Of a DNA stretch of 64,000 bases, positions 30,595 through 60,399 are shown piece by piece (the first letter of the stretch is position 1; each line of letters opens with the position of its first letter). The DNA is from a virus. Lineage: Duplodnaviria > Caudoviricetes. The stretch is from the IMG/VR virus record IMGVR_UViG_3300031853_000002, positions 64,001 to 128,000 of that record; one strand, given 5' to 3'. The notes beneath the pieces were generated by a model, which did no database searches, was not told the origin of the DNA, and saw only the letters and a list, made by a program, of their open reading frames with translations. The position numbers and the translations under genes were made by a program.

Positions 30595-32483
30595 GACTAA
30601 ATATTCGTAAATTTCAAATTGGAGGTGAATTTGCCTCTTTAGCTGTTAATTATATACCAACCAGTGCTAGTACAACTGCGGGAGCCTATGCTCCTGCGGT
30701 TGCTACTAGTTCTTCAGGTTCTTCAAAGAGTTCTTCATCATCTAGTAGTAAAGATGAACTTAACATAAAGGATGTACTCAAAGTCTTTGATGGAGTTAAG
30801 GGACTTCCTGTTGATATTTAGTATGTTCTTAAAGACTTTAAATAGATGTTTGATGATGATACTTTATTTTCCTTTAGTGGAAAACCTTCCTATTCTTCTT
30901 TAGTAACATACTATCTTAATAATATAGGAAAGTTTAATGCTTTAGGACATAGTAAAGAACTTTATGATGAAGCTAGGAAACAATTAATAGCTAATAATAG
31001 TTTAGATGAAATAGCCATTGATAGAAATGGACGAGTAGTAGTATCAACAGGAGATGGACTTGATGCTGTTACTATGGATGAATTCAAGAAAGGTGATTAT
31101 ACCGCTCTTACTAACAGAGAATTACTTGATCTTAGATAGAAAAAACTTCCCTTTGGAGATTCAGTATATAATACAATGACAGGTGTTGGCATGGATTCTG
31201 TCATTAAAAAGGTTAATGATATTGTACACAGCCTTGGAACTTCTGAGAAGAATATATCTGGATATACAGCTAAACAATCAGATGCTATACGTTCAGGTCT
31301 TACTACTATGAAAGAGCTTCAAGGAGTTGAGGCTAGCACTATGACAGTAGATGGACTTTATAAAAATAAAGCTATTACTAAGGATTAGGCCTAGTAGGCT
31401 AAACTTGCCTTACAAGCAGTTTATAATAGTCTAACTCCACAAGAAAGAACTCTACTTTCTATTCACTCTCAAGGTGGTAGTCCAACTGAAACTCTTTCTA
31501 GTATTATTCTATCTCGTACACCTGATACAATAGAATTTGAGCCTACTTTACAGGCTACTCTTAATCCAGATGGAACTAAGAAAGAAACTACAAAGGCTGA
31601 GAAGGAACCTGGAGATGAAAATGATAATCCACTTACATAGATGTAGGAACAAAAGGGAGGAGTACATACACAACTTACTTGGATTACTAAGGAAGGTGTT
31701 CAAGCTATGCATACTCCTGGAACTGAATATCCTATGTTAAATAATGTAAAGGGTGATATGAGTATTAAGTCTATGCTTACGGCAAGTGGTATAGCTGGTA
31801 TTACTCAAGGTTATGGAGGAATTACTATGGGTGACCAAGTTATTCCATATGAAAACCTTAAAGACGTTATGTATGAGGATAGAGGTGGTGCTGTTGCTGT
31901 TCTTCCAACTACAACAGATCCTCAAGGTAATAAGAAAGTGGATCTTTCTGTTCTAAATGATTATAACGAGATAGTTAATAATATACCGTATGAATAGGGT
32001 AGTGCTGAATGGGCCAGAGAACTCGCTAAAGGTCTTAAGGAAAAAGGTCTTGACCAATATCTCGAAGGTTCAGATACAATTGATCCAAGACGTTTTGGTT
32101 TGTTCTTAATGGTTACTGGTTATACTACAGATAGATGGAACTTTAGAAAGGACTCTCAATTTATAGAGAAAGTATCTAATCCATCTCAAGACTTAGCTAA
32201 AAGAATGTCTACTGCTCTTAGTACGGATAAAGATAATACAAATTATGAAGTTGATATTGATGATTGGGGACTTGGCTGGTTATTCGAAGGAGGATATGAT
32301 GATATTTACAGGGGAACAGTATATATTCCACTTAATCCTAATAGAAATTCAGCTGTATCTGCTTTTGGAGGTCAAGTTAAACATTCTACTGGTCAGCTTT
32401 ATGAAAGAAATTATCAAGATCTTCTTTCTGGTAAGATTGACAAACAGAAAGATATAAGTAGTGATATACTAAACGAACAATGA
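30591..32483 (+). CDS. Putative cargo protein (630 aa)
   Basis: Five track fragments share one frame, with ATGA overlaps at both ends. Confidence 0.7.
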
Positions 32484-35400
32484 AGAAGAATGATTTTATA
32501 GTTGCTAGTATAAATAATCCCGATTTCAGTATAGCCGATTTTAAAGACATATCTGAAATGAACTTAGGGAATACCTAGATGCTTTCAGAGGACGAGTACT
32601 TAAAAAGTAAATTTATTAAGGAAAATCCTCTCTTTTAGGATAGTAATGGAAATTTTGTAAAACAGAAATTCTCAGACTTTTATAGATAGAAGCTTAGAGA
32701 CTTTAGCGAATTTAGTACTGAAAGTTCTTTAGATAATTATCAATATGGACTTTTCGATACTTTTCGTAAAGCAAAAGATAATGTAAGACCTTTTGGTGTT
32801 AGTTTTGAAAAAGTTGCTAATTCGGAAAGAAGGAGTACTGGTATAGTAGGTCCAAATCTTCAAGGAGAACGTACTTTCTCTGATAGAGAACTTGCTCAAC
32901 GAGAAAGAGTCTTTGATTATAAAGAAGGTACATTTAGAGACTATACTCCTAATGATTTAGCTTTTACAAAGAATCCATTTGCGTGGATTGGTTCATTGTT
33001 TGATGATCCTCTTGTATTAGCAACATATGACGAGAATGGAACACACTATGATCCTATTCTTGGTAGAGAAGTCGAACATGTAAAAGGACAAAAGAAACTT
33101 AATGAAAATGGAGTTCCTTACTATGAAACTTTAGCAGGACGTTCTGCAGCTAATAAGGATATACTTAGTATAACAGACAATCTTACTGTTGATGGTTCTT
33201 GGATAAATAAGTATGATTTCTTTGATTCTGATGGAATGGATAAAAGTGTTGCTGGTACAGTTATGAAGAACTTAGCAGTAATTGCTCCAATCTTTATTCC
33301 TGGGGCTGGACAATATTATGCTGGAGCTTTAGTAGTAAGAGAAATGGCTAAGACTATGCCTATGTTATATGGTATGGCTGGCCTGTTTGATAATGATTTA
33401 GAAGACTCTAAATTAGTAAATACTATAGCTGGAGTAGGTAATAAGTTCACAGGAAATACATCTGATTATGCTAAAGAAAAGATGTTTTCTATGGAAAACT
33501 TTGCTAGTCTTGTTTCTGATGTAGCATTACAATGGCAACAACAGCAATGGATTATCAATAACTTATCTAAAATAAATAAGGCTACTAAAGCAACAGAAGA
33601 AGCAGCTAAAGCAAAAGCATTAAAGGAATATTCTACTAGAGCCAATATGTTAATGACTCAGGGAGAAAGAGGAGAGATTGCTATGGAGCGTGTTGCTCAA
33701 CTTACTGGTGCTAAAGATAGAGCCGCTCTTAATGAAATCATTAAAGGTGATACTTGGATGGCTTCTCCTTATGGAGGTGCTTCACTTGAGAAGTATTTGA
33801 CTCCTGCTAGAAATGTTATTGCTAAGAAGACTAAGTTAGCACAAGACCTATCTCTTGGTTATATGGCTATCATATCTAATGGAGATGTATACCAAGATGC
33901 TCTTAACCACGGTACATCTAAAAGAGAAGCAGCAATGCTTGCTCTTGGTAGTACTGTAGGAATGTTCTCTGTAGATAAATATTTAGGTCTTGGAGAAATG
34001 TTCTACGATCCAGCTCAGAAAGCAGAAAGAGCAGTATTCAGAAATACTCTTCTTGATGAAACTGGAAAACTTACAAAACAGTTAGGAGAAGGAGTATCAG
34101 TAAAGGCTGGTAAAACAGCAGTTGCAGACGAAAGAAAAGGTCTTGGTAAGTACTTTGTAAAAGGTATTCAAGCAGGTAGAAAAGCAGTAGAAAACTATCA
34201 GGGTGCAATCAAAGAAGGAACTTTAGGATTCTTTGGTAAAGCACTTGGTGAGGGACTTGAGGAAACATCTGAAGAACTTGTAACTGATATTGTAAAACAA
34301 CTTGGTGAAATAGCCGGTGAATATGGATTATCAGAAGTTACTAACCTTGGCGCTTGGGATAATATGAAGGATAGATATCTTATGTCTTTCTTAGGAGGTG
34401 CTATTGGTGGTGGAATATTCTCATTAAAAGATGGCAACTTTAAGACACGTCAAGCATCTGGAGAATTACTTACTTTACTTAGATAGGGTAAGGGACAAGA
34501 AATTCGTGACGAATTAAAGAGACTTCATGATAAGGGAGAACTTGGTAGTACTGAATTATCTTATAAGACAGAACAAACTTATGATGATAAAAATAATCCT
34601 CAATCTGTATTCTTAACTGCTGATGAGAATAATCAATCACAAAATGATTATGCTTATAATATACTTACATAGTCTATAGAACAAATAGAATCAATATTAC
34701 AAAAGAATCATCTTGTAAAGTCTGAAGACGAACTATTCGATAACTTAGTTCTTCAAGATGAAAACTTTACTGCTCTTAAAGACTACTTACAAGATGCCTC
34801 ATATATAACTGGATACCAGAGACGTTATCAACAACTTGTTAAAAATATTGTAGCCCAAGAACAAAAGATAAACAACTTATCTAAGTCTGATGGCGAAGAA
34901 AAAGCTAACAAGACTGAACTTGAAGAAGCTCGTAAAGACCTTACTAATATGCTATTAGAAAGAGACAAGTTCTTCAATGGTGATTATTCTCTTGAATATT
35001 TACAGAAAATGCTTTTCGCTATTAACCCACAATTAGCAGGAGCATTCATGCCTCTTACAAAGAAACAATTAACTAGAGCTATGCTTAATATTGATTACGA
35101 TCTATTAGATGGAGGTATGAAAGAGTTTATGGATAAAATCTATGAACAACACGTTAAAGACCCATCTAAAATAGAAGAGGAATTGGATAAGGCTTTTGAT
35201 AAATTCAAGTCTTTACAACCATAGATGGAACCAATCCTATCTAAATTAACAGGTGGAAGTAAACAGTGGGAAAACATTCGTAAGACTCTTGATGAAAAAG
35301 GAATCTTAAAGAATGAAGATATATATACAGTAGATTCAATTCTTCCTGGCGAGGATGAAGAGTCAGAATCCTATGTATATAGAAACAAGCTAATGGAAGG

Positions 35401-38400
35401 TGAAACTCAAGCAGAATTTGCTCAAAGACTTAGAGCTAGACAAATGACTGCTGCTGAGCATAATGCCCGTCTTAAAATACAAAAGCTACAAGCTGTTCTT
35501 GATGAAGCTAAGGTTGATTCATATGACCCAGTTACTGGAATGAGTAAACCTTCTACATTTATTGATCCAAGTACTCGTCGTTATCTAATGGCATATCTTG
35601 GAGAAACACAGCAACATATAAAGAACAGACTTATAGCAAGAACCATAGGTACAGCTGTTAATAAGGAACTCCTTAATAATGCTGAGAACTATGACGAACT
35701 TATTAATAAGGTTAGAGATTCTTTAAAGATTAAGTTTGAAAGAAGTATTGGAGAAGACTTCCTAAATTATCTTGGAACACAAGATTATAGTGGTCTTTCT
35801 GCTTTTTATGGACAGTTATCTTCTAAACCTAAGTTTACTCTTGAAGAAGTTCTTAAGAATCTTAACAGAGATGGTTGGGAAGATTATACTATTCCAGAAC
35901 AGTTAGCTGCTATGTTTGAAGATGCAACTGGAATGGAAGGAGACTTTGACTTTATATAGGATGCAGCTAAATATGATGAACTATATAGTCAGTATATGGG
36001 AGAGGCTGATCCAGATAAATAGGCTGAGTTAAAGGAACAACTTGATAAACTTGGACAAAAAGAATATCAAGCCTGGGATGAAGATTACTTCAATGAACAA
36101 GTAAAACAACTTGTAGAAAATGAAATAACTCGTCTAGAGCCTCAACTTCAGAAACTTAATAAAGAATTCCTAACAGATAGTGATTTAAAAGCTGCTAAAG
36201 ATCTAGAAGAAAGACTTTCAGTAGAAGAAAACCCTGCAGTTGAACTTGTAAAAGAGCTTGCTCCTAAGATTGGAGGAAGTGCTGTAGAAGTAGAGAAAGC
36301 TCTTGAATCTATAATGCAGCAATTCAGAGAGAAAGAAAAGTCTACAGACTTTATCTTATCTGGAGACCAAGTAAACTATTTAGAAGAAGCTAAGAAACTT
36401 ATAGCTATTACTACTGCTATGGTAGCTGCTTCATCTCGTGAATCTAATTTACAAGATGGAATGACTTATAACAAAGCAGTTAATAAGTTCCATGCAGATC
36501 ATCAAGGAAGACAACAAGGTTCAGAGTTCTTCAAGAATTTTGAGCCCCTCTTTGAAATGGACGAAAAGATTGGTGGACAACTTATTACAGCTCTAAATGG
36601 TTATGCCAACGAAATAGACCAGTGGATTTAGCTATCAAGAGAGAATCAAGCTAACAGTACTGCTAGTTTAAAGCGTTCAGCTGAAGCACTTAACAATGCT
36701 AGACTACGCTTCTTGAGTGGTAGTATGTCTTCTAATGAGTTCTTAGAGGATAGTCTTGTTAATCCAAATGATGAGAACTCCCTATATAATTTTGAAAAGC
36801 AATTCCACGATAACGTTAAAAGCGCTATAGCTGGAGGAAGAAACTTAAAAGATATATTTAAGAGTTTACTTTCACATCTTAACTAGGATGATGAAATTAT
36901 AAGTGGTATTACTTCTAATGTAGACGAAGAATTAAAAGAACTTACTGCTTATGATAAGTATATGTATCTTACTTCTTTAATTGCTTTAGATCCTACAGAC
37001 CAATTAAGAAGAGAACAAGCCTTTATAAAAGCTAATCCTAATATTGCTCCACTTGCTACCCAACAACCAGGTATGCAACTTGGTCAAGCCCTCGCAGAAA
37101 ACCCAGACGTGATTAATGCAGCACTTGAAGCACTTCAGGAATTAGCAACTGCTAAAGGACTTAAAGTTCCTGTAATGTGGAATACCACTATAGTAACAGG
37201 ACTTGGAGGTGGTGGTAAGACTAGTGTAGAAGCCAAGTATCTAGTTAATGAAGACGAAGAGACTTGGATAGCTGGTCCTACTGATAGACAACTTGAAGCT
37301 CTTAAAGAAATTGCTCCAAAGGCTAAAGCATTTAACCTTGATAATCTTATTAAGGCTATATATAAAGGAGAACTTAAAGGTACTGCAGGTAAGAGTATTG
37401 ATGGATGGACTCCTAAAATTATTGATGATTCTAAAGCTGAATATATAATTAAGGATGCTCCAAAGCACTTAATAATTGATGAGGCTACACACGTTGATAC
37501 ACTTAAATTACAAGCCATTGCTAATTGGGCTAAGAAAGCAGGAGTTAGAATAACTTTACTTGGTGATGAGAATCAAAGAGGTGCTGAATATAATTTAAAT
37601 AGAGAAGCACTGCTTGCTTATAGAACTCCTAGACTTAATTTTTCACTAAGAAATGAAAGTATCTGGAAAGTATAGAATCAAAATCAACTTGTTTCTATGT
37701 TGGACAGAATGAGAAATTCTTCTAAAGAAACAAAATCTGCTGTACTTTCATAGATATTAGAAAGTTTTAAAAATAAGTTACCTCTTAGTTACTTTGAAAA
37801 TGAAAATACTATAGAAGGAGAAAAAGTAATATCTAAAATAACTGCTGACGACCTTAATAGACTTAGTGGAAGTGTTGCTTATATAGGTGATAATAAAGAT
37901 ATTATAAACTTTATACAATCTAATTTACCTGCAGGAACTACATTTACATCTTTAGATAAAAAATCTGTACAAGGCTCAGAATTTGATTATGTAATAGTAG
38001 ACTCTGATTGGGGAGGAGCCTTTACAAAAAGTGCTGATGGAAAGTTTAACTATGAGCAAGATATAGAGCATGCTGCTAACTTTTTGAGAGATTTATATAC
38101 AATGATTTCAAGAAGTAGAAGAGGTAGTTTAGTTTTAGATAATCAATTAACTAACGTAGTAAATCCTATAAAAGAAGAATATACTACTAAATATGAAAGA
38201 CTTTCTGAAGGAGTTATTCAAGATTTTATTGAATCTAGACTTGCTTACATAGAAAATATTCTTAATAATCTTGAGAAGCCAGAAGAAGTAACAATAGAAG
38301 AACCTAAAGAGGAACCAAAGGAAGAAGAAACTTCTGAGGAAACTCTAGAGCCAAAGCCTGTTAAAAATCTTTCCGATGCTGAAAAAGAAGAGTTACAAAC

Positions 38401-41359
38401 TGTTCCAAAAACTGAAAAGGAAGCTAAAATAACAGGATATCGTGCTTATGGTAATGTTGCTTTTGTTGGAAATGTATCTGAAGATGGAAAGGAATGGATA
38501 TCTACTGGTGGCAAGCCAAGGGATATAGGTATATTTGGTGCTATGAGTCCGGCAGGAACTATACTTGCCAAGACTGGAGCAGAGAAAAGAGAACTTGTAA
38601 GAAAACTTAATTTTATTAAGAGTTTATTCTTATATGATCTTGATATAGACCTTTATGATATTCCTCTTGAACTTCAAAGACAACTTTCTAAGAAGGCACT
38701 AAAAGCAGCTAAATTCTATTTAGTAGCTGAAGATAAGAGTAGTGTTCATAATCTTACAGGTCTTACAACTCTTAAGCAGAATGAACTTGATTTTATTCCT
38801 GGTAAGGTAATCAGTATTCAAGCTAGAGTAGAAACTCCTGCTGGAGAAGCTATTATAACTCTTGGAGCTGTTGCTAATCCTGCTAAATGGATAGAGGGAA
38901 TAGAAAATAACCCAAGTCTTTCTCGTGCCGAAAAAGATGCTCAAATAGCAGAAGCTAAACATTATGAAGAATAGTTAAAAAATCTTATAAATAGTAAAGA
39001 TTAGGAAATTAGAATAAATAAGCCTAAATTTAATGGTCGTACAGAACTTGTTCAATTAAGGGTTGGAGATATTACTGGTTTAGAGAATGCTCCAAATGCA
39101 AGAGATAAGCGTAAAATTAGACTCGAAAATCTATATGACGATATCTCTGAATTTGATGCTAGAACTGGTAACTCTGTTGTAAGTCCTATACATGTTATAA
39201 CTGCACCTATTCCTGGAATAAGTGATAAGTTAGTTGGACATTCTGTATTGTTTGTTTCTAATAATAATACTCTACAACCTGAACAATTAGGTAAACTCTT
39301 TATTCAACAACAAGAAGACAGAGCTAAAGGAATAGAATCTAAAGCACAAGTTAGAATGATTGTTCTTGACAATGCGGGAGTTTCATTCCATTCTCTTTAT
39401 AGAGGAGGTTTCAAGGATATTTATTCAACTAGTGTTCGTGATAAAGAATTTGCTTTCCCATTTAATCTACAAGCACAAAGTATTCGTATGCTTGCTGCTA
39501 TGTGGAACTTCAGAGCAGATCTTAACCGCTTTATAAATGCTATGAATAATTCTGGTTATACCAGAGAATAGCTAATGGATATGGCTAGGACCGATACTGA
39601 ACTTTATCAAGAACTTCAAAATCAAAAGGTTGAAGAATACAGAACTATGTATGGAGAAGATCCAGAAAGAGAACCTGTTATTTCTAATACCGAATATAAG
39701 CAGTGGCTTAATAGTTATTTTGATAGAGATAAAGCTGATAAGGTTCTTAAACTTATTGAGTTCAATGAAAATTCTGATCTTCCTAGATTTAGAGTTGGAT
39801 GGAGTAATAGAGCAGGAGCTTATATAAGAAGAATATATGGTCTGAAAGAGGATAATCCTTATTATAATAGACATTATAAAGGACATTCAGAAAGATTTGA
39901 TCCTAATAATACAAATGGTATCTATATCAATCCTGATCTTGCTGACCAATATGCTGGTATGCTTGATTACTTATTTGATAATGTAGTCGGAAGAATATTC
40001 GATACTACATCTTTAAATAAGAATGAGAATATCAATTATAAGGAAACTGAAAAATGGCTTAATGAAGCTAAGGCTAAGAAGCTAACAATTAACGACGAAG
40101 GTGGTGTTATTCCAATTCCAAGTCAAGAAATGACCAAAGCATTCCCTCTAATTCTTACTAAGATTGCTTCTTATATGCATAGTAAGATGCATTTCGGACA
40201 AGAAGAATTTGATAATAGAAGAAATAGAGAAGGTGATAATGCCCTGTACCATATTTATCTTAATTACGAAAGTAAGACAGACGAAATTGATTACACAGGT
40301 CTTGACTCGTTCTTAAAAGCAACAGTAGGTGGAACAGAGGTTTCTGGACTATTACAAGAATCTAATACAAGAAGAGATGTAATTGGACAGAGTGACTATA
40401 CATATGAAGATGGAGATACAGTTTATCAAGACTGTCGTTTAGATAACTTCTTTAATCTTATGTTCCATGGAGTTGTATTTGAAAAGAACTACAACGAATT
40501 CGATGGAAGTCAACAGCATGATTCTATGGCAATCTTTGGAGATGGATTCTTCTCAGATCCAGTTATTATCAGTGGTAATGGAAGTGCTAGAGATATGATT
40601 GCTGCTTGTGCTACTAATAGAAAGTTATTCAGATTAGATGTAGTTCCAGGTAATCCTATTCTTGAATTTACTTTTGACCAATACAAGGAAGAAACAGAAG
40701 TAAAAGGAGAAGAGGCTGCTACAGAACTACCTATACTAGCAGAAGCTAGAAGTCTAGGTATTGATACTTCAAGATTCAATTTTGATGGCTTTACTGATGA
40801 TGAAATAGCTTCATTTATAGAGAGAAAGTTTGATGAACGTGATAGTAAGGTATTTGCAAAGGGAGAAGGAGACCTTTCTAAATTAGTAATTAGGGTAGAT
40901 ACTAATAAAGTATATACTCTAAGTGATGTTTATCCAGAAGTTGGAAATATTGTAAGCTAGGAAGCTAGTGGAGATGGTACAGCATTCACAGTTACTAATG
41001 ATAAGGGTCTTAAATTTGAGATTCGCTATAATGACCATGAAATCACAGTAAATCAGAAGACTGCTCCAGGAACAAGAACTGTCGATGATAAGGTAGTTAC
41101 TTCGTTCCAAGGACAAGAAGTAAATAAAGCAATACAAGACTTTATTGAAAGTAAATCACAATATGACGATAGTGATGCGCTTAAGAGTTGGATGAGTAAC
41201 AATGAAGGAATTGAGTACTCAGCAGATGATCTAAAAGCAATAAGAAAAGACCTTAGAAATACTCTTGAAGATGAAGGAGTTTTAGAGGATGCTGATATTA
41301 CACTTTTAGAAAATATAATAGATACATTTATCAATCAAATAAATACAAGTGATTGTTAA
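32480..41359 (+). CDS. Giant virion cargo protein with internal SF1 (RecD-like) helicase domain (2959 aa)
   Basis: Walker A TGLGGGGKTS, Walker B LIIDEATH, LLGDENQ, SVQGSEFDYV and LYTMISRSR. Hydrophobic segments in the N-terminal part. Confidence 0.85.
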
Positions 41360-41360
41360 T

Positions 41361-47300: not shown

Positions 47301-50300
47301 AATATCTATCAATCCAGATTTGGAGTGGATATAGATGAATCCATGATAGATGTTATAAAGGACGGTCCTAAGAAAGCTAAGAATGTAAGGCAGGTACATC
47401 AAAGTGTTGATCCTAACTTCTATGATTTAATAATGACTAAAGCTAATGGTCATCATACCTATATATCTTTAGATAGGGCTTTTGAAACAACTAAGGCTGA
47501 TGAAGATGGAGAACTTCCTGATACTTCATATAGATGGACTTATTGGAAGGATAGACATAGAAAAGCTGTTAATGATCCATTAATAGTTAATGAAGTTTAT
47601 GCAACTAATAAGGAACAGAAAGTTTTATTTAAGATTGGTAGAGATATAAGAAGACCAGATCTTGCTTATAGTTAGGAAGGTAAATACTACTATGATAAGA
47701 ATACACATGAAAGAGTTACAAGGAATGAAAACAGGCTCCAGTATAAAAATGGAGAAGTTATTGAATATGTTGAATTTGTAACTAAACATGAAGTAAAAGA
47801 TCACGGACGTAGACATACAGTCTTAAATATAAATGTTGAAGAATTAAAGAGAACAATTAGTCCTAGAGATATTACTCTTGATAATGGACATACTCTTACT
47901 CCTCAACAAGCTATTGATTAGGATGCTAATACTTATATACAAGAACTATGTAAAGAAATCTATGAAGCAGATTCATATGAAGCCTTTACAGTTAATAATC
48001 AACAAGTTAAACGTTCTAATTTAACAAGATTACAAAGGATATTAGAAGGATTTGCACATAAAGATAAGAATGGTAAGTATAAGTACTTTGGTTACGATGC
48101 TACTCTTACTAATTACTTAGAGGCTATATCTGAGCAGTTCAGTAAGATTCCAGAGACTAAAGAATTTAAGAGACCTGACCTTACTTATGATGCAGATACT
48201 GATACTATCAAATTTATAAAGGCTAAAGATAACGGTTCTATCGCTAAAATTATAGAAGATAGAACAAAAGCGTTAAAAGCAAGGCTCAATTAGAAGAAAT
48301 ATTATTCTTTCTTAAGATCTCAATATTATACAGCTTCTCGTATTCCTGCACAAACTTTACAATCATTCATGAACATGAGACAGATAGGTTATACAGCTGA
48401 GGGTTCTAACCTAGCTTATGTATCTCACTGGCAGACTTGGTAAATTTAACAAATTTTAAGTTGGACATTTTGACTCTTAGTCCAAATTATACTAAATTTA
48501 ATAAAAATAAAATTTTATAATTATGAGAAAAAGTCCAACTAAAATTACGCCAGAGCTTATAGAAAAGCTAAGAGAGCTTGTAGAAGCAGGAAAACAGAAT
48601 AAAGAGATTTCAGAGATTTTAGGCATAGGTACTACTACTATTACTACTTATAAGAAAAAATATAATATAACTTATAAAAAACTTACAGCCGAAGATAGAA
48701 AAGATGAGATTATACAATTATATACTTCAGGTATGTCTACTAAAGATATAGCTTTTAAACTGGGATATTCTTCTCAAACCACTATTAAAAATATACTTAA
48801 TAAATACGGTATAGAGGGGAATAAAGAAAAAGAAATTAAAAGAATTCAAGAAGAAGTATCTAAGGTATGTAATAATTGTAATTCTGTATATGAGGTAAGT
48901 AAAAAAGTAGGATGCAGTGTTAGTACCGTACGTAAGTATATGTCTGAATTTGGACTAAGTTTAAAATTAAAAGAATCTCTTACAGATGAGGATATAAATA
49001 ATATAGATATTCCAGAACTTAAGTACGATTTTAATACAGAAATAAAGAACATTCCAGAAAATGATAGGGCTGAATTTATTATTAATAAAATCAAACTATT
49101 AATTATAAAAAATCGCAAATATACAGGACTTTTATTAGTAAAAAATAATGGAATAAGTGAAAATTATTTGCGAACTTACAACATTAATATTGAAGAAATT
49201 AATAATAGTTTAGGAATAAAAAGAGTTAATGGTTCTTGTCTTGAATTATATTTCTCTGAATTCTGTGAATTAAATAATATAGACTATGAAGCCCAAAAAA
49301 CTTATGAAGATTGTACTTATAAAGATTATTTAAGATTTGATTATTATCTTCCTAAATATAATGTATTAATCGAAATACAGGGAAAGCAACATTACATTCC
49401 AATAGAAAAATTTGGAGGAAAAACTGCTTTTGAAGAAGGAAAACTAAGAGATAATATTAAAAAAGAATGGTGTCATAATCACAACATAAAACTTATATAT
49501 ATTTCTTATAAAGATTTATATCTAAAGGACTATCTAGAAAATCTATTTGAAAAAGAAATATATCCTTGTTGCCAAGTATAAACTGGGTGAATTGCTGGAA
49601 AGTCTAGAGGTAGATAATCAGCAGCCAAGCTAAGTTTAGGATAAAGGAACTTAGAAGGTTCAACGACTAGAGGAATGAGCCTAACAATAATTTCCTCCAC
49701 GAGTGCCCAGCACAGAAATGTGAAGATATAGTCTGAACTTACGGTATAACCTAACCATAAACCGTAGAATTAGAGGATAAAGAGCCTCTAAGATAACAAA
49801 ATGTACAAGGAAGCGATTATGATATTGATAAGGCTTATATAATGGGACTTGCTTTTGATGATAATGGACAATACATAGGATGGTCTAGCTTATTTAATTA
49901 TAATAGCCTTGAAACAATTCAAGCTTCTGAATACTTACCACTTCCTAAAAATGGAGTAATAATCCAAGAATCAGAAAACGGAGTAGATGTATCAGATGAT
50001 GTTGCTATTATTAAATAGGCAAGAGATATCTTAAAGAATAGTCCAGAGGCTAAGCTAATAAATGAATGGGAAGCTAAGAAAGTACTTGCTTATGCTAGAA
50101 TCCTTAATAAGTTAGGAGATAATAACCTTGTTAAAGGTGCTGATCCAGAAACTATTGAGGAACTTAATAACCATAACGCTACTAAACTTCCTGCTGATTT
50201 AAAGGCTGCTGCACTTAGAAACTTTATTTCTGTACATATTCAGAATACTATACAGAATGTTAGAAATGCTGCTGACTCTTATGTTCCTGTAGATATGGAA

Positions 50301-52571
50301 GACTTAAGAAAAGCTGCTGATAACTCTCCTAAAGGTGCTGAATCTTTAGAGATATCTCTAGTAAATCCACTCTCTATATATACTATGCAATATCAGAACA
50401 TGACTGGTAAAAACGTTATTGCTATATCTGCTACTGGTCAGAAAGGTGCTTTCATGTGGATGTATTATTTAAATGATACTATCAAGAATGCTCGAGAAGG
50501 TATTGATTATATAGTAAATGAAGTTGGAGAAGTAGTTCCTGTAGAGAACACTGACTTTGCTTATAGTAGATTTGAATTTACCACAGACAGAATAGCAGGT
50601 AGAAGTAAGACAGTTAATAATATACCTCAAACTCATAAAGTTACTTCTACTACACTTCCAGATGTTAATGTAGAAGACCTACAAGACCTTAATCTTATAA
50701 AGTACATTGAATCAGGAAAGTTACACTCTGGTATTCCTATTGACATTATGATTAGCCAGATGATTAGTGCTGCTACAGATAACGCTAAAGAGCTTATTCT
50801 TGCTAAGATTAATGCTGGTAGTAAATTAGCTAAGTGTTACTTATTCTTAATGACTCTTGGTTATGATATTAATGATATAGTTAAATTCATGACTAGTGAT
50901 GCTGTTTCTTGGATAGACTCTCTATCTGATCCTAACATATTCTTAGGACAAGAACTTAGACCTGATGAAGCTATTACTGAAATAGAGAAGTACTTAAAGA
51001 ACTACGACACTAATAAGGATATTGACCATTATGAAGATGAATTTGGTGGAGAAGTAGATAACTCTCGTGATAGATTATCTCTGTTAAAGAGTATAATTCC
51101 TTCAGATTTGACTGCTTCACAAAGACAAGAAGCTTTAGCAGATTTAGCTGAATTCAAGAGAGTTATGGAAGGTTCCGATGAATTTAGTACTTTCGGACGA
51201 TTCTTAAGCATTAACCAAGGTCTTCCTGGTAAGGCTGAAGATTTGGAAGGAGTACTTTCTAATATCAAGAAGATTATTACTAAGAGAGAAAAGGATATGG
51301 GTATTGTAAATTCAGATGGAGTACTTACTGAAGCTCCTGATGATAGATACATAGATATTGCAGGAGGAATGTTCGATCCAGTTAGATGGTTACAAGACGA
51401 AGAATATCAAACTCGTGTAGCTGAATACTATAACAAACTAAAAGTTACCTTAAATATATTTGCAATTGCTCCTAAACTACCTCACTTTAAGAGTATGTTT
51501 AAACTGCTTGGAGGTGAATGTACTGTTAATCAGTTCTCAGTAAAGAGTAAGATTCTCAGTGCTTGTCTTAATAAGATAGCAAGAGAATGTCCTAAACTTT
51601 ACTTAGACGATAAGTATTATTCAAGAATTTTAGGATTTGCTTCATCTATAATGATGCAGCAATTTATTGTTGATAGTGGCTTTAAATTCCCAATAAAAGG
51701 CTCTATATTAGACAGTAATAGAACAATCGCAAATAATCGTTCTGGAATATTATCATTAGATACTGAAGAGGGTATTGCTTCATTTAAATACTACTTCGAA
51801 AATGTGGTTATTCCTGGATTAAAGGCTGGAACTTATGGAGATTGGGATGATGAAACTAAAGAAACTATTCGTAGAAATCCATTCATTCAAGCCTTAATGA
51901 GAGGTAATGATAGAGATGTTCCTGTTTGGAAAACAAACGTTAATATTTCTTCTGATTCTTCTTATACAAGAGTTCAATTATCAAGATTTAGTAAAGGACT
52001 TAATCAACTATCTAACTATAAGATTGGTAATTTATCTGTATCTGATTGGTTTGCAGTTTATAACTTGATTGTAAATAAGAACCAATATGGATCTGACCGT
52101 CTTACTAAGATATTTGAAGGATTTATTAAAGAATTTGATAATAAGGGCGATAATATAATTAACAGATATTTAAAATATGTAGGAGAGCATGATTACTCTG
52201 AACAAGAGATAGATAAGATGATGGACTTTACTGCTATGGACTTATTTATTGCTCAAGCAAGAGTAGTATCTAGTCTGAAAGGACAAAAAGATCCTGTAGT
52301 TATTATGTATGAGGATAAAGTTCCTGTATATTATAAGAATATAGGCTTTAACAGATATGAGAAGATGGATGATATACTTCCAGCTCTTCCGGGTGAAAGT
52401 ATAGAACAAAGACTTCATCGATTCTATTTAGATAGAGCATACTTTATATTAGGAAAGCCTTATTCTAATATAATAACTAAAGTAAAGGACCAACTTAATC
52501 AAGCTCCTACATTTGCTATAGCTGAATTAATGAGATAGACTAAGTTGTTATTAGACATTAATTGTGCATGA
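41361..52571 (+). CDS. Virion-packaged two-barrel RNA polymerase, exons 41361-48441 and 49804-52571 (3282 aa spliced)
   Basis: SRIPAQ motif, and spliced ...WQTW-L-QGSDYDIDK gives the crAss-type DxDID catalytic motif. All track fragments share one frame. Confidence 0.9.
48442..49803 (+). mobile_element. Group I intron 3 in vRNAP (1362 nt), endonuclease in P1 loop
   Basis: 5' exon ACUUGGU pairs with GCCAAGU (49571-49577), and CCUUGU pairs with 3' exon ACAAGG. Core elements lie at ~49590-49735, and the intron ends in G. Confidence 0.93.
48523..49581 (+). CDS. Intron-encoded endonuclease: tandem HTH repeats plus Vsr/DUF559-like (EDxHD-type) nuclease domain
   Basis: Three HTH-like units, then RFDYYLPKYNVLIEIQGKQHY...RDNIKKEWC...IKLIYI. 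Confidence 0.85.
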   Translation: MRKSPTKITPELIEKLRELVEAGKQNKEISEILGIGTTTITTYKKKYNITYKKLTAEDRKDEIIQLYTSGMSTKDIAFKLGYSSQTTIKNILNKYGIEGNKEKEIKRIQEEVSKVCNNCNSVYEVSKKVGCSVSTVRKYMSEFGLSLKLKESLTDEDINNIDIPELKYDFNTEIKNIPENDRAEFIINKIKLLIIKNRKYTGLLLVKNNGISENYLRTYNINIEEINNSLGIKRVNGSCLELYFSEFCELNNIDYEAQKTYEDCTYKDYLRFDYYLPKYNVLIEIQGKQHYIPIEKFGGKTAFEEGKLRDNIKKEWCHNHNIKLIYISYKDLYLKDYLENLFEKEIYPCCQV

Positions 52572-55138
52572 AAAACTGTACTATAACTTTTAAAATTGGA
52601 GAAACTACTCGAAATATAGTAGTTCCTGAAGAAGAATTCTATGGGGCAGAGGGCGAACGCTCTCTGTCTACATGGGATTTTTAGGCTAGGCTTGGACAAG
52701 TACTAGCAAAAAGAAAAGATGAATGGAACAGCATAAAAAGAGATATTATCCAATCTTTAAAGGATAATAGTGCAATTTCTGAAGCTGTAACTTTTAGCAA
52801 AATAAGTAAGCAGGAAGGACTTGTACCTAATGTTAATTATAAATATATACAAGATACTTATCCTGAGATAGATTTTCCTAATATTGATGTTCCAATCTTA
52901 TTACTGGATAACTTAGATATGCAATCTAAATTTCCTGTAAGCGGAAGAGTCATAGATAAGAAAGGAAAAGAAATATTTGTAGTAAGAGGTGATAAAGATT
53001 CTCTTGTACAACTTGCTGGATATTTAAAGATTAGAGAAAAAGTTCTTAGTGGAGAATATAAAAATACTCTAGATGAAGAACTTACCAATATACTTGGAAG
53101 AGTAGCTACTAAATGGAATGTATCTCCAGAAGAAGCTATACTCAAATTCTTAAATGATAAGAAAAGTGTAAAATCAAGTGAAAAGGGTATATTAGAAGGA
53201 GCTTCTATATATACTTGGATGACTTATATAACTGCTGCTATAAAGGAGACTCCTATTAAAAAGAAATATAACAATGTAATACTAAACGAAGTTAATAGAA
53301 GACTTGTTACTAATAAGTTAGGAGAACAGGTTCTTTCCACAAGTGAACTTATTACTCCTTTAATGTAGACATTTCCACAAATATTTTCAACTGAAAAAGA
53401 TCTAATAGAACTATTTAATAAAAAGTCTGGAGAAGTTCTTGATGTAATAGCACAACGTCTAAATGCTAAGAAAACTAATCTGGATAAGTCTAAAGGTCCA
53501 AAAGCTGAAATTGGAAAGGCTAGAATAGATAATGCTATGGACTTCTATGCATTACTTAATGAAGTAAGAGAAGAAGAACTTGCAAAGCGTAATGGAGAAG
53601 ATATTTGGGGATTTACTATGTTATTTAAGGCTATTAATTCTTTAACTGATACTAATGAAAATCCACTTGATGTATTACCAGTATCTCTAAAGAATAAGAA
53701 ACTTATCTTTAAGAAAGTCTTCCCATCTTTTGAATCAGCATATGGTTATGGATATGATACAGTGATTTCTTTTACTAAGGAAGAAGAAAGAAATGGTTAC
53801 TATATTTATAGCCAAACTAAAGAAGTTGGAAATAAAACTGTTACTTATTACTATGTAACTCCTTATTTTATCAATGAAAAACTAAATGCTAATAGATTCT
53901 CTAGTATAGCTGATGCACAAGAATGGATTGATAGCCATTATATTACATAGAATTTAAGAGCCAATTCCTTGATTGACCTTAAATAGAGATATATAGATGG
54001 AGGAGTTCAAGAAAGAACTGGTAGAACTTTCCTGAGTGATAAATTTATACAGGAAGGAACTATATTTACAGCAATTGATATGCCTTTAGATATACGTTCT
54101 ACTAATATGAAGGAAGAAGAATATAATCTTCTTAGTAAGTCATTATAGGATTTCTACAATTACATAGAAACTCTTGATTTTGATACAGCAACTAAAGCAA
54201 ATATTATCAGTAAAATAAATACTGCAGAAAAGGCAGTAATCTTCCTAAGTGAAATGAACAGACTCATGAACACTAAGGATGATTCTGGACAAATGCAGTA
54301 TCTAAGAGTAAATAATGATAAAGCTCTATCTATAGTAAATGAAATAAATAATAAGAAACCTACATATTATTATGTTAGTTCTTCCTATAAAGTGGATGAA
54401 GGTAAGTATCGTATACGTTTTATAGAAACTGACGAATCTGCGGTAGGAGAAAAGAAATATAATAAACGAACTCCTATATTACAGTTGCTGGCAAAGATAG
54501 CAGACGTAATGAATAAGAAATTTGGAGTTGAAGTTAATATAGTAAATGAGGAACAACTTACTCAAATGGGAATTGAAGATATGAATCTAGTCAAGGCTTT
54601 TATTAAAGATGGTAAGATTTATATTAATTCTGCTACAGCTAAAGCAGAAGATGCTTTCCACGAATATGCTCACTTATTCCTTGGTGCTCTAAAGGCAGTT
54701 CCAGAGTTTAGAGATAGTTACCAAGAGTTCATTGAAAAGGTACTTTCTACAGAAAGGGGACAAATCTTATATAAAAGGAATCAAAAGAGATTCCCTAAAC
54801 TCAGTGCTTTTGATCTTGCAGAAGAAACTGTTGCTGATTTATATGGAGAATATATGGAAGGTAACTTACCTTATGAACTTAGTTCTTTATTTGCTATGAA
54901 TGACAAACTTAAAGAAGTAGAAAATACTATATTTGATAGAAAAGATAAAGGACAAGCAATTATTGATTTTAAGGGTTCTCTAAATGGTATTTGGAAACAC
55001 TTTAATTCAGATGTTGCTGTAGCCTTAAATGATAATATAAACTTTATAAAAGATGGGGCTCTCCAAATCCAACGTCAGAAAGATAACTGGATTAAAGAGC
55101 AAATTAATAAAGGAAATATTATAGAAGACTGTGAATGA
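52568..55138 (+). CDS. Cargo protein with C-terminal zincin-like metallopeptidase motif (856 aa)
   Basis: KAFIKDGKIYIN...FHEYAHLF...AEETVAD, with ATGA overlaps at both ends. Confidence 0.8.
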
Positions 55139-58100
55139 AAAATTGTACATATGATATAGTAAATGGAGAGCAAGGGCTCTCTTTAATAGCACTACTTAGA
55201 TATGTAGATAAGTAGTTTGCAGAAGTTCTAGATACTAAGGAAAAAGCTTCTATAAGTGATATAGTATATTCTAAGGATCCACTTAAAGACTCTATTATTA
55301 CTAAAATAGGTTAGGTAAAGCATGATTATATTATAATTGCTTCTCGTACAGTTTCTACATACGATGATGAACTTGGTGGAGATGGAAATACTCTTTCTTA
55401 TCAAGAGTTTATAGAGGATCCATCTTGTCTTATAGATGGACAGCCCCTCGTAAGACCTTTTAACAGGGACGAGTTTAGAAATAGTGAAATAGAAAATCTT
55501 GTACAAAACCATAATTATTCCAAAGAAAAAGCTACTGCTGAAGTTGATAAAGACTTAGCTAATATGGATGCCTTTAAAAAGGATTCTGTAACTCTTCACA
55601 AAATAATTGATGGTTATGGAGCTGTTTCAACACAAGTAAAGAACTCTGACTATGTAAGTGCTGTGGCTGATGTTGTAAAAGATACTCCATTTGAAGGAAG
55701 AACAGCAATGCTTGAAGACCTTAAAGGTCAAATGGAAAACTTTGTAAATCAGTATATATACAGAACACAAGTTAGTCCAGTTGTAGTAGGTAACGTAGGT
55801 CTTAAAGCCAAGATAGAAGCCCTAGGTAAAGAGTTAGTTGGACATATTGACTATTTATCTGTTGATGCTTCTGGAACATTACATATTTATAATTTTAAAG
55901 CTTCTCAGAAACCAATGAATACTTGGTCTAAGGATAAGTGGAAAAAATATAACTATGGTATGGCTTTCCTTAAATAGATGCTTGCTTATAATGATATTCC
56001 TATCAATAATATAGAATTAAATATAGTTCCAGTTAGAATGGATTATGAGGGAGATAACCTTAAAAAGATAGTTGTAGGTGCTCCCCAAAATATCTCAGTA
56101 AACAGAAGTGGTAGTTATATGCTTGAACAATATGATAAGCATGCTCGTCACTTTATTCGTAGTAATGTTAATATTCCTAAAGTTACTATTGAAACATTTG
56201 ATAAAGCTGATGAAATCTTCCAACATATATTTCCTATTTTAAATATGAGAAGTGAAGGAACACATCGTTCAGCTGTAGAAATGATTAAAAGAGCACCTGA
56301 AGCTGGAGAAGCAGAACCACTTGTTATTAGAGAGGTTAATGATGAAAAAGGACGTTGGGAAGTAATTATTGGAGGTAAATCTTATAGACCTAAATCAAAT
56401 AAGAACAAGAATAACAATCAAGAAATTCTTGATATAGTTGTAGAGCATCTTAATGAAATACAAGACGAAACTCTTCAGACGGTACATACTCTTAAGGAAG
56501 CTATTCGTAAAATGAATCAAATCGGAGAGAAGGGTGTATTTGTTCCCGAAGCAGATGTAATAGACAAATTAAAAGGTCTTTCATCTTCTAGAGGTTTCAT
56601 TAAGACTATGCTTGATACATACTTTAATGATGTTGATTGGGACGTAGATTCTAAAGGTAATAAAACTCCTATATATAAATGGAAGCTACGTGATGATCTT
56701 CTTGACTACAATATTATTCTAATGTAGAATAATGATACAGGGCAACTTGATATTATTTCATTATCTGCATTTGACTGTAATGCTGAAATACCGTTTGGTA
56801 AAGGACGTCATAATTTACTTGGTGCTTTTAAAACTGATGTTGAAACAAATACTTTAAGAGGAGACTATGGTAATGCAGAAGTAATTAGAGCTATAGTTCT
56901 TCTTAATTAGATACTTCCAACTATGAAGGATATTGATAATATTCAACTTGGTAAAGTAAAGGTGCTTAGCCATACAGGTAAGTCTCGTAGTTATGCTATT
57001 GGTACTATTACAAAGGATTATCTACCTGAAATTATAAGCACCGTAAATCTAGAAGGATTTGTAAACAACTTTAGAGGTTTAAAAGCTGATAAGTTTGTTG
57101 ATCCTATCAGTGCAGTTCTTAACGAATATGGACTTCTAGCTACTGGTAGAAATGAAGCGGAAATGGCTAAGTATCTTCCAGAGAAGTTCATAGAACTACA
57201 AAGCCTTATTGAAAGTGATGAATCTTATAAAAAGACTAAAGTTCTAAAAGAATTACTTGAATCTTTCCAATCTGAGGCTACTGGTATACTACCATCTCAT
57301 GAATTCAAGGATATAGCTAGATATGCTGCAGGACAACTTGGTTCTAAAAGAGATCAACAAATCTGTAGAGTGTATAGAGCACTTTCTGATGCTTATCATC
57401 ATTATACAAGAGAAACATTTAATTATGAAATGGAACTTACTGATGTATATAGACATATGTCTACTACTAATCATATTCCAAATCAAAATATACGTATTGT
57501 AACTGATAATCTAGCACAGACTTATAATAGTATAGCAACTGAAATTGAACAATATCATGCTAAGAATATGAGAAAGTTCATTAAGGAATATTTAGATGCT
57601 AAAGGTTATGGACTTGCTAAAAATGCTACTATCGGTGATGAAGTAAATCTATTTAAAAATCTATTTGAGTAGGACGAACAAGGAAAGAGAACTATGAAGT
57701 TTAAGAATCCTTGGACTGATGGTAGTCTTGATAATGCTGAGGCCGAATTCCTTAAAAAGGCTTTGTGGTAGTTCTATATAATAAGGAATGGTGGAGATGT
57801 TCTTAACTTAGGTGGTTATAACGATCCTAAAGTTCTTGATTTTATATAGAATAGAGCAGGAGGACATAAATATTTATGGTGTCCGCTTATGAGAGCTACT
57901 AATTCTACTAGAGTTATGCAAAATCTAGAGACTTCTACTTGGAAGGGAAGAGCTCAACGTATGTGGAAGATAATGTCCAATCCTAAATAGTACTATGATG
58001 ATCAAATAGAAAATATTACAGAACAAGAAAGAGAACTTATCAATAAAGGGTTAAATGCTGATAAGGAAAAACTTGGCCATGTAATTAATATGTTTAATAT

Positions 58101-59784
58101 TGGAGATGAACGTTTTGAACCAGGTTCTCGTAATAAATACATTGAAGAACAAGGTGTAGATTTCTTTGAAACCAATGTTGAAACTATCCTTATAGAATAT
58201 CTATCTAAATAGGTGGAATGTTCTAAATTGAAAGATTTTATGATTGGTACGCGTTCTCTTCTATTCCAACTTACATTGATGGGAGAGGAATCTGGTAATT
58301 CAGATATAATGAAACGTGAAATCCAATATATCAGAGACTTCTTAAAAGTTAATGTATTTAATACTACTATTAAGAGTGAAACTGGTGCTGTTCTTACAGG
58401 AGCACTTGCAGGTATCAGAAGTAAAGTAACTCTTATGAACCTTGGAGGTAATATGATTTCATTCTTCCGTGATATATTCCAGGGCTTTGAAGAAAACTTC
58501 ATGAGGACTGTAACTAAACTTAATACTGATATAGATGCTAAGACTCTTAGTTAGGCATATGCATATGTAATTACACACGGTATGACTAATACAATGAATA
58601 TTAGTATGCTTAGTGCTTTACAAGCCAAGTATCGTCTATCTAATATAGACCTTGCTAGTATGGAATCTCTACGTATTGGTAGAGGTGGTGTTGCTAACTA
58701 CAAGAACTGGGCATATGCAACTCTTCGTAGACCTGACTTCTTAAATAGAATGACATTATTTGTTGCTCGTTGTATGAAGGATGGATGTTGGGAAGGTTGG
58801 GAACTTAAGGATGATATTCTTATATATGATTGGAAGAAAGATAAGAGATTTAAAGCATTGGTAGACGGAACTTCTAAAGATGCTCCAGAATATAAGCACG
58901 CTAAAGCCTTGTATATGTCTAAAGCTCGTGAATGGAATTCAGAACATCCTGAAAGTCAGATTGACTTGAATCCGGAAACTGCTGAAACATTCCTACCTGC
59001 ACCTTATGCTGACAGAGAAATTCTTGCTATTAAAGAAGTAGCTGATAATATCTATGGCGCATATGATAAATCTCTAAAGTCTATGGGAGAACATACAACA
59101 CTTATGTGGTTCTTCGGTATGTATACTACTTGGATGAATGGTATTTGGAACAATTACTTTATGAAGCCAGGTAAGTATATTGCTAATAGATCTAACATGG
59201 AACAACAAACTGATGAGGCTGGTAATCCTCTGTTCCTTGATGAAAATGGAGGTGTTACTACAGTAGATACTGGAATGCCCCTTTATCATAATGTTCCAAC
59301 TATAGTACAAGGAATTGCTTATACTATAAGAGATTTATACTACATTACTAAGGATGGTGGTCTACAAGCAATGAAAGACTATATAAATGCTAATCCTACA
59401 GTAAGAGCTAATCTGGCTAAATTACTTAGTGATATGCTTGTTACTTTATTAATGTTCATGGCATTCAAGTTTGCTTTAGATCCAGCTTATAAAGACTATA
59501 AGAAAGAAATGAAGAATAATCCAGTATTTGCAAATCTTGCTACTGAAATATTCTATAAGGCTGGTTCTCGTTCTTACGACTCATTTAGAGGTCCTCTTAA
59601 CTTTAAAGATTGGCTTGGAGATAATACAGCTTCTCCAATGTATGAAGTTAATCTTAAAGTTGCTCAAGATGCTCTTAAAGTTATTACAGGAAGAAAGAGC
59701 TTACCAGATGCTTTTATGGGTAATTTCGCAGTTGCTCGTGCTGGTAAAGATACTTATAATGCTTGGAAGAAAGCCCAAGATTAA
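55135..59784 (+). CDS. Large cargo protein with degenerate PD-(D/E)XK nuclease-like domain (1549 aa)
   Basis: Five track fragments share one frame. Contains LVGHIDYLSVDASGTLHIYNFKAS and a hydrophobic helix near the C-terminus. Confidence 0.75.
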
Positions 59785-59828
59785 AAAAAAAAGAGGGGAG
59801 CCCGATTACCGGACTCCCCATTCTTTTT
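59783..59828. terminator. Bidirectional intrinsic terminator between convergent blocks
   Basis: A10 tract, GGGGAGCCCG...CGGACTCCCC hairpin, then TTCTTTTT. Confidence 0.85.
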
Positions 59829-60399
59829 ATAAACTATTATGTACATGAAACTTTATGACTTTAAATAAGTCTTCAAGCGTTCCAACGTTATCAATTACGA
59901 TATCCCATCCTTTATAGTCGTCAAGTGCAGTTTCACTAATGTGATTTCCAGCACCTGCACCGGGACGTTCTATCCTAATCAATTTTCCACCTCTGGCCTT
60001 TACAGCCTCAGCTTCATTTGGGAAACGCACATCAGCTATTATAATATTACCATTTTGATAAGTATTAAATAGTGCTTTTACCCAAAATTCTGGATCTATC
60101 TCCTTTCTAACTGCAGTACCTAACTTCTGTAAGAATTCTCTGACAGTCATTCCAAGCCAATCAAGATACATTTGTTTAACCTCTTGGCTATTAAAGTCAT
60201 CAAAAGGCATATCAAGCATTTCTTGAGATACTTCCTTTAATAAATCAGCATAATGTCTTATGAAGTGATCTTGAGAAAAAGTGAAATCAGAATTCCAATA
60301 CATATCCCAAGTAATATCTGGATTGGATAGTAAACAAGCTAACATTTTAGCAGTAGTATCTTTACCTGCTTGTGCTTTACCTGCTATTCCTATTATCAT
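59827..60399 (-). CDS. Deoxynucleoside monophosphate kinase
   Basis: IIGIAGKAQAGKDT P-loop, REFLQKLGT, IADVRFPNE and HISE. Confidence 0.9.
   Translation of the reverse strand: MIIGIAGKAQAGKDTTAKMLACLLSNPDITWDMYWNSDFTFSQDHFIRHYADLLKEVSQEMLDMPFDDFNSQEVKQMYLDWLGMTVREFLQKLGTAVRKEIDPEFWVKALFNTYQNGNIIIADVRFPNEAEAVKARGGKLIRIERPGAGAGNHISETALDDYKGWDIVIDNVGTLEDLFKVIKFHVHNSL

Follow-up and report, generated by a model that had tools for sequence, protein, structure and literature searches.

Four giant proteins with cysteines at their facing ends

Here we describe four giant proteins encoded in a 64,000-nucleotide (nt) stretch of DNA from a tailed phage, positions 64,001 to 128,000 of IMG/VR virus record IMGVR_UViG_3300031853_000002 (hereafter the window), in which a single cysteine is positioned at every terminus that faces a neighbouring protein. 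The long plus-strand open reading frames (ORFs) of the window require a code in which TAG is read as glutamine (TAG=Q), and the giant frames are closed under the other reading. Translated with this code, the plus-strand block at 26299-59784 includes four giant putative cargo proteins, which we designate A to D in the order of the proposed chain:

32480-41359, plus strand: protein A (2959 aa), which opens the chain and contains a P-loop domain of SF1/RecD-like type
41361-48441, plus strand: exon 1 of protein B, starting MQC, with the Cys3 codon at 41367-41369
48442-49803, plus strand: group I intron of 1362 nt (Rfam RF00028), with a homing-endonuclease ORF inside it at 48523-49581
49804-52571, plus strand: exon 2 of protein B, with the DYDID catalytic motif at 49815-49829, ending DINCA
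52568-55138, plus strand: protein C (856 aa), in which residues 698-702 (54659-54673) form a zincin-like HExxH motif
55135-59784, plus strand: protein D (1549 aa), which closes the chain and starts MKNC, with the Cys4 codon at 55144-55146

Protein A starts MKKNDFIV and ends NTSDC; its only cysteines are residues 2652, 2710 and 2959, the last of which is the final residue of the protein (codon 41354-41356). Spliced B is 3282 aa long and has eight cysteines, including Cys3 and, one residue before the C-terminus, Cys3281 (codon 52563-52565). Protein C starts MKNC, ends IEDCE and has no cysteine other than Cys4 (52577-52579) and Cys855 (55130-55132). Protein D ends KKAQD, and the last of its eight cysteines is residue 1218, so that its C-terminus is free of them. 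In total, A to D contain 21 cysteines in approximately 8,650 residues, and six of these occupy the six facing termini. An earlier note on this DNA, made from the letters alone, had read exactly these ends for A (no N-terminal cysteine, a TSDC terminus), for C (MKNC and EDCE, with no further cysteine) and for D, and TAG=Q translation bears it out on all three. It had also assigned MQC and INCA termini and a virion RNA polymerase identity to B, which hold as well; its treatment of B as a single ORF does not, as the gene is split by the intron.

Cysteines are otherwise scarce in the block, which contains 0-0.55% as compared to 1-2.7% for most ORFs elsewhere in the window. Cysteines within the first six residues occur in 0/27 of the other ORFs, and within the last ten in only four. 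By simple arithmetic, assuming the approximately 0.2% cysteine of A to D, the chance of finding cysteines at all six internal termini is of the order of 1e-11.

Identity of the chain members

Several features identify the insert in B as a predicted group I intron with a homing endonuclease. Its 3′ portion (49522-49755) matches RF00028 with 74.2 bits (E=1.5e-18; gathering score 50), and the ORF within it encodes a 352-aa helix-turn-helix (HTH)/homing endonuclease with matches to PHROG homing/HNH endonuclease families. In addition, the insertion point lies immediately 5′ of the catalytic DYDID motif of B, where joining of the T at 48441 and the G at 49803 restores the sequence SHWQTW-L-QGSDYDIDKAY, which is identical to that of the unsplit orthologue in a 67%-identical relative (L049). 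Other relatives either carry an insertion at the same site of B (exon 1 ending LQGSDY, exon 2 starting DIDKAY) or, as in L049 and L053, have none. The polymerase of cr116_1 carries a similar insertion.

The motif restored by splicing also gives the identity of B. Its GSDYDIDK matches the catalytic motif of the phi14:2 polymerase (GSDFDIDKMY, residue 1361) and of crAss001 gp50 (GSDFDVDKLY, residue 1483), and by this sequence criterion B is a virion RNA polymerase of the crAss type. Beyond this motif, BLASTP of B against crAss001 gp50 was not significant, and a phmmer search of the PDB with B gave no match. From the phi14:2 and crAss001 homologues we infer that virions carry A to D and transfer them into the host.

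The remaining chain members are similarly diverged, and searches of Pfam and PHROGs returned nothing for B, C or D. Residues 1569-1702 of A match Pfam AAA_30 (E=1.9e-8). C likewise gave no match in a Foldseek search of the PDB at E<=1e-3, using a model with a predicted local distance difference test score (pLDDT) of 51, but H698, E699 and H702 of its HExxH motif are invariant in 11 sequences, on which basis C appears zincin-like. For D, a profile search of PDB sequences gave no match, and the D-family hidden Markov model (HMM) missed the gp49-family proteins; nor was BLASTP significant for A, B and D against crAss001 gp47, gp50 and gp49, respectively. Profile-to-profile alignment by hhalign of the D family (61 sequences) with the gp49 family (five sequences) was more sensitive, extending over 344 columns with a probability of 93.5% (E=2.3e-7), and indicates by sequence that the C-terminal region of D is related to gp49.

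D also contains, at residues ~230-300, a Cas4/RecB-like PD-(D/E)XK stretch with the motif IDLLVVDxxGxxHIxDYKTS. A Foldseek search with the model of a D homologue (P0063, residues 1-720) placed Cas4 SSO0001, EXO5 and RecE on top, with probabilities of 0.98-1.0 and E values of ~2e-3. Cas4/RecB-like nuclease domains often carry cysteines; that of the D family is without the cysteines of comparable domains. In crAss001 a comparable stretch is located in gp47 (residues 1778-1876), which suggests that domains move between chain members. As for the phage itself, the closest GenBank records (MT835470 and MT835492) are unclassified, and a single-sequence search of the 163-kb genome with the crAss001 major capsid protein gave no match; the architecture of the cargo block is crAss-like.

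Conservation of the terminal cysteines

The earlier note had proposed that conservation in homologues, and enrichment at internal over outer termini, would be telling. Both are found. Terminal cysteines are kept between relatives of 16-35% identity, under standard, TAG=Q and TGA=W (TGA read as tryptophan) codes, they follow the splits and fusions described below, and only the internal termini, not the outer ones, are enriched for them. Related phages in GenBank number only two, at 25-30% identity and one of them using the standard code, and both retain the full cysteine pattern; in one of the two, A is divided into two proteins, and the extra junction has a cysteine on both sides. A locus search with C as the single query gave no match. 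Searching with D revealed 35 IMG/VR loci in which the B/C and C/D junctions are kept without exception, and altogether the cysteines of these two junctions are present in 37/37 loci compared, with the C-terminal cysteine of B in all relatives. Similarly, 79 loci found with the N-terminus of B represent 24 distinct types of A/B junction, all 24 of which have a cysteine on both sides. The outer end is just as consistent: every one of the 13 complete first proteins is without an N-terminal cysteine.

A broader census gave the same picture. A profile of the first 1000 residues of D found 920 clusters among 1.84 billion representatives (50%-identity clusters), and cysteines were counted in the 137 full-length representatives among the matches listed. 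A cysteine is present at residues 2-6 in 132 of these (at position 3 or 4 in 123), where ~2.4 would be expected, and within the last ten residues in only two. Of the five exceptions, two are without the N-terminus, and in the other three the aligned cysteine lies behind a start that is probably mis-called. Indeed, the N-terminal cysteine is among 13 invariant columns in an alignment of 61 D sequences. The seven full-length homologues of C in a database of 5.8 billion proteins each have exactly two cysteines, at the third and the last residue. The positions of the cysteines vary somewhat: they lie at residue 3 to 7 of N-termini and 1 to 10 residues from the end at C-termini, and stop-to-start spacing at the junctions ranges from -8 to +18 nt. 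In one relative (L035:5504-5560) no ATG is present close to the start of the C homologue, whose first Met comes only after the conserved stretch SNCKIFIKYKVGG; this suggests either a non-ATG start or a sequencing error.

The same rule applies to classical crassviruses. In phi14:2, the single cysteine of gp078 (1797 aa) is its last residue, the 2180-aa polymerase gp077 has Cys3 and Cys2179 only, and gp076 (1421 aa) has Cys3 only; these GenBank tags correspond to gp67, gp66 and gp65 of bioRxiv 10.1101/2020.03.07.982082. Likewise in crAss001, the sole cysteine of gp47 is residue 2339 of 2341, gp50 has Cys5 and Cys2404, and the sole cysteine of gp49 is residue 5. DAC15 and cr116_1 follow the rule as well, and 0/68 exceptions were found among crAss001-like loci, which were collected with a three-sequence gp49 alignment (a five-sequence version being too diverged) and are mostly close relatives of crAss001. 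In three of these phages, crAss001, DAC15 and cr116_1, the first protein and the other two are encoded on different strands. The earlier note had suggested linkage in gene order; the pairing that it implied stands, and these genomes indicate that the order is that of the chain and not of the genes.

By the same sequence comparison, the rule holds outside of Crassvirales. In the Cellulophaga phage phi17:2 (Lightbulbvirus; L046), the only cysteine of gp039 is its last residue, gp038 has Cys4 and Cys516, and gp036 has Cys3 only, while in the Leptolyngbya phage Lbo-JY46 (L047) a 1552-aa protein has its only cysteine as the last residue and a 2748-aa protein has Cys4 only. Both phages encode gp47-like and gp49-like giant proteins and no recognisable DFDxD polymerase.

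Splits and fusions change the cysteines in pairs

If facing cysteines are partners, then the number of pairs should follow the number of junctions, and across lineages it does. In the L002 clade, A is divided between two genes, which makes a five-member chain, and cysteines flank the new junction on both sides. Fusions have the opposite effect. In the Suoliviridae cr4_1 and cr118_1, A and B are fused (4491-4946 aa) and followed by a second protein of 1667-1803 aa, with one cysteine pair left; for example, the 4946-aa gp14 of cr118_1 has a cysteine at its C-terminus only, and the following protein has Cys3 only. In p-crAssphage and crAss002 it is B and D that are fused. The 4070-aa protein of p-crAssphage starts MSC and has no C-terminal cysteine, and the preceding protein (1957 aa) ends FSCM, which again leaves one pair at the remaining junction. 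A third arrangement is seen in P0050 and P0063, where a short C is fused to D colinearly with the split forms: 'FCG|MGC' at the split junction becomes 'EEG-K' or 'NG', with both cysteines gone, and the N-terminal cysteine that faces B is retained. A BLAST map shows that the domain order of fused forms is that of the split forms. By these sequence comparisons, each split adds one cysteine pair and each fusion removes exactly the pair that would be joined in a chain. A role for the terminal cysteines as cleavage sites was rejected, because they are absent from the fused forms.

The M-x-Cys start can also be used as an annotation rule to correct mis-called gene starts. In crAss002 gp33 (L042, MN917146), for example, translation probably begins 32 codons downstream of the annotated MVLDYS start, at an internal Met that yields MSCTPSN, in agreement with the rule and similar to the MSCGNIK of p-crAssphage.

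Structure models of the C/D junction

The natural C+D fusion offers a view of how facing termini might meet. An AlphaFold2 model of P0063 (residues 1-720) has a pLDDT of 76.5 and a predicted template modelling score (pTM) of 0.60, with pLDDT values of 89-93 over residues 331-370, where the junction lies. In this region the last helix of C is followed by a strand formed by the C tail (344-347), a two-residue turn, two strands of a D hairpin (350-353 and 356-358) and then a D helix. When the split forms are aligned with this model, the C-terminal cysteine of C and the N-terminal cysteine of D fall on the two turn positions. Since both map to one beta-turn, the model predicts that split C and D would rebuild a single beta-hairpin with an open turn that the cysteine pair closes, as a matter of topology rather than of measured distance. 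The model of C alone (pLDDT 51) has an N-terminal hairpin starting from Cys4 and a disordered tail that contains Cys855.

Co-folding of adjacent termini, which the earlier note had suggested as a check, gave weak support for contact. For a standard-code relative (L010), residues 560-804 of C and 1-320 of D co-folded with a median interaction prediction score from aligned errors (ipSAE) of 0.60, compared to 0.00 for the best of three controls; contact agreement between runs was at least 44%, and partner pLDDT was at least 74. The mark used was reached by 58/80 solved complexes and 2/110 mismatched pairs, and at ipSAE <=0.60 there were only seven of the 80 solved complexes together with both of the mismatches that passed.

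A disulfide-linked cargo thread and its alternatives

Comparative sequence evidence strongly supports a pairing of the facing termini. Our preferred interpretation, which we consider probable, is that A to D form a cargo thread linked head to tail by disulfides. In this mechanism the C-terminal tail of each protein would dock on the N-terminal beta-hairpin of the next, and the single cysteine at each facing end would enter an intermolecular disulfide, so that the four polypeptides (~8,650 residues, ~1 megadalton, MDa) would become one unbranched A-B-C-D thread. As the links would lie a few residues from chain ends, this thread would stay essentially linear and could be threaded, passing unfolded through the portal and the tail channel. 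Selection would remove other cysteines, since cross-links formed within a protein or with a wrong partner would obstruct threading. Finally, the reducing cytoplasm of the host would cut the links and release the polymerase and its partners. The disulfide, the packaging and ejection of the proteins, the role in ordering both and the redox release are steps that we infer from the comparisons above.

Published work on related phages agrees with parts of this scheme. In crAss001 virions, numerous disulfides connect subunits of the tail and portal vertex, including in a gp57 homodimer, and gp47, gp49 and gp50 were detected in these virions by mass spectrometry (PMC10172136). The phi14:2 polymerase gp66 enters the host, and an activation step is thought necessary for it (bioRxiv 10.1101/2020.03.07.982082).

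Several points weigh against a disulfide thread. The bond is proposed from sequence comparison and models, and the C/D co-fold provides weak support for contact. Virions are assembled in a reducing cytoplasm, and the gut hosts are anaerobic. A search of the 163-kb genome for thioredoxin-fold genes gave no match. The C-terminal cysteine of some lineages is set back 5-9 residues from the end, as in crAss001 gp50 (ICGANTLYEL). Recombinant phi14:2 gp66, purified with dithiothreitol (DTT), is active alone (bioRxiv 10.1101/2020.03.07.982082), and a link is thus not needed for catalysis. For crAss001, cryo-electron microscopy did not resolve gp47, gp49 or gp50; the reduced and non-reduced samples of that work, run as a single band, yield no mobility data either way (PMC10172136).

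The alternative that best withstands the evidence is that facing termini do meet and that their thiols form something other than a disulfide, namely a metal bridge (a two-thiolate site) or part of a non-covalent docking surface. The comparative evidence fits such a contact equally, the assembly compartment is reducing, and no phage thiol oxidase was found in searches for Erv1/ALR proteins, whose controls also gave no signal, and for thioredoxin. However, each terminus offers one cysteine with no conserved His or second Cys nearby, which would make a poor metal site, and docking alone explains neither the absolute conservation of Cys over Ser or Ala nor the depletion of all other cysteines. We regard this alternative as unlikely.

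Somewhat less likely still are homotypic bonds (head to head and tail to tail), or bonds to the portal or capsid interior, in place of bonds between chain neighbours. The many inter-subunit disulfides of crAss001 virions, the gp57 homodimer among them, give this idea a precedent, and cysteine parity alone is compatible with it. Yet it leaves unexplained why an N-terminal cysteine is always lacking in the first protein (13/13) and a C-terminal one is so rare in the last (2/137), why no junction has a cysteine on one side only, and why cysteines are gained jointly in splits and lost jointly in fusions; moreover, the P0063 fusion model sets both positions at one turn.

We give very little weight to a third arrangement, in which the middle proteins B and C would each self-close by an N- to C-terminal disulfide and the C-terminus of the first protein would pair with the N-terminus of the last. 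The parity of N- and C-terminal cysteines allows it, but the A+B, B+D and C+D fusions each remove two cysteines that are non-partners in that arrangement, and the cysteines left after fusion would have to change partners. Self-closure also fits poorly with the pairing of the C tail and the first strand of D in the fusion model and with the C/D co-fold, weakly as the latter passes its controls.

Lastly, it is scarcely credible that the terminal cysteines are a by-product of a nucleotide signal for translational coupling or re-initiation, or that they arose by chance: the B/C and C/D junctions of the window are indeed alike in DNA (TGTGNATGAAAAAYTGTAC) and have ATGA overlaps, but the rule persists where partners lie on opposite strands, at -8 to +18 nt spacing and with varied cysteine positions, which effectively refutes a coupling or DNA-motif explanation, and chance was rejected on the window estimate (~1e-11) and on the D-family count (132/137 against ~2.4). 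Two further types of chemistry were also rejected: the lipoprotein type, for want of a lipobox-bearing signal peptide, and the intein type, for want of an intein domain.

Returning to the disulfide-linked thread, we also put forward, tentatively and with less assurance, a fuller version in which the cargo is one covalent hetero-polymer of ~1 MDa, a 'post-translational polyprotein'. Here disulfide joints would replace peptide bonds as redox-cleavable linkers, packaging and ejection would follow a fixed order, and host reductases would switch on the polymerase. The device might be older and wider than Crassvirales, because the Lightbulbvirus and the cyanophage keep the rule without the polymerase.

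Surroundings of the chain

Two more proteins precede A within the block:

26299-30594, plus strand: 1431-aa protein without cysteine, with Gly/Ala-rich hydrophobic stretches, outside of the cysteine chain
30591-32483, plus strand: 630-aa protein without cysteine, the positional counterpart of crAss001 gp46

Neither has a family match in Pfam or PHROGs. By position, and by synteny with gp45-gp46-gp47, the 1431-aa protein is the counterpart of the crAss001 cargo protein gp45. At the other end, a G+C-rich hairpin at 59785-59830 (GGGGAGCCCG and CCGGACTCCCC) directly follows the stop codon of D and forms the end of the plus-strand late block; beyond it, genes are located on the minus strand and contain few TAG codons. 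In the tail region, two small proteins (8339-9010 and 14990-15436) end in cysteine (LLAC and KQYC) and could correspond to the ring and hub proteins that disulfides link in crAss001. A second homing-endonuclease-like ORF (9158-10249; phrog_314, E=8e-20), with no in-frame TAG, lies among virion genes and may mark another intron or be a free-standing endonuclease.

Relation to known systems

Crassviruses are the most abundant human gut phages, and the block bears on how they store and inject a near-megadalton load of protein that includes an RNA polymerase. If the thread is real, a covalent tether would account in simple physical terms for packaging and threading in order, would explain the near-absence of other cysteines and would provide a redox trigger for the release and activation of the polymerase; fused and split forms would then be equivalent solutions for making one continuous thread. 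No description of a terminal-cysteine rule or of a tether was found in the literature surveyed, which left out most subscription journals. Terminal cysteines are not mentioned in PMC10172136, bioRxiv 10.1101/2020.03.07.982082 or PMC13434306, the last of which, a 2026 paper on N4, terms the crassvirus ejection proteins structurally unresolved.

The nearest relatives are the blocks gp47-gp50-gp49 of crAss001 and gp67-gp66-gp65 of phi14:2. As in the window, their giant proteins lie 3′ of two cysteine-free cargo-like proteins, and they share the GSD(F/Y)D(I/V)DK motif, the zincin-like HExxH, the gp49-like region of D and the terminal-cysteine rule. The present block differs in having four chain members instead of three, the zincin-like unit forming an 856-aa protein of its own between the polymerase and the last protein, as well as in its intron-split polymerase, its TAG=Q recoding and a divergence too great for BLAST or HMM-sequence matches. 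In the fused 'polyprotein' forms of p-crAssphage, crAss002 and the Suoliviridae, units that have a gene each in the window are joined by a peptide bond. Such forms are assumed in the literature to be cleaved; the cysteine rule suggests instead, from sequence, that separate forms are re-joined.

Outside of the crassviruses, N4 also ejects a giant RNA polymerase (PMC13434306). More generally, gp50 (the virion RNA polymerase), gp51 and gp52 of N4, gp14, gp15 and gp16 of T7, and gp7, gp20 and gp16 of P22 are likewise carried inside the virion, exit by way of the tail and function in the envelope or cytoplasm of the host. As far as is known, these ejection proteins assemble non-covalently, and we know of no end-to-end covalent tether described for them.

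Disulfides between crassvirus virion proteins do form, as exemplified by the ring, tail-hub and gp57 bonds of the crAss001 tail and portal vertex (PMC10172136). Those bonds staple a symmetric lattice, whereas here single end cysteines would join different cargo proteins linearly. Long linear polymers built by disulfides that are confined to the terminal regions of subunits are familiar from von Willebrand factor and the gel-forming mucins, although these are homotypic, rely on multi-cysteine domains and arise in the secretory pathway of eukaryotes, and serve as an analogy only. Taken together, these sequence-based comparisons point to an end-to-end, probably disulfide, tether as an undescribed feature of a known kind of system.

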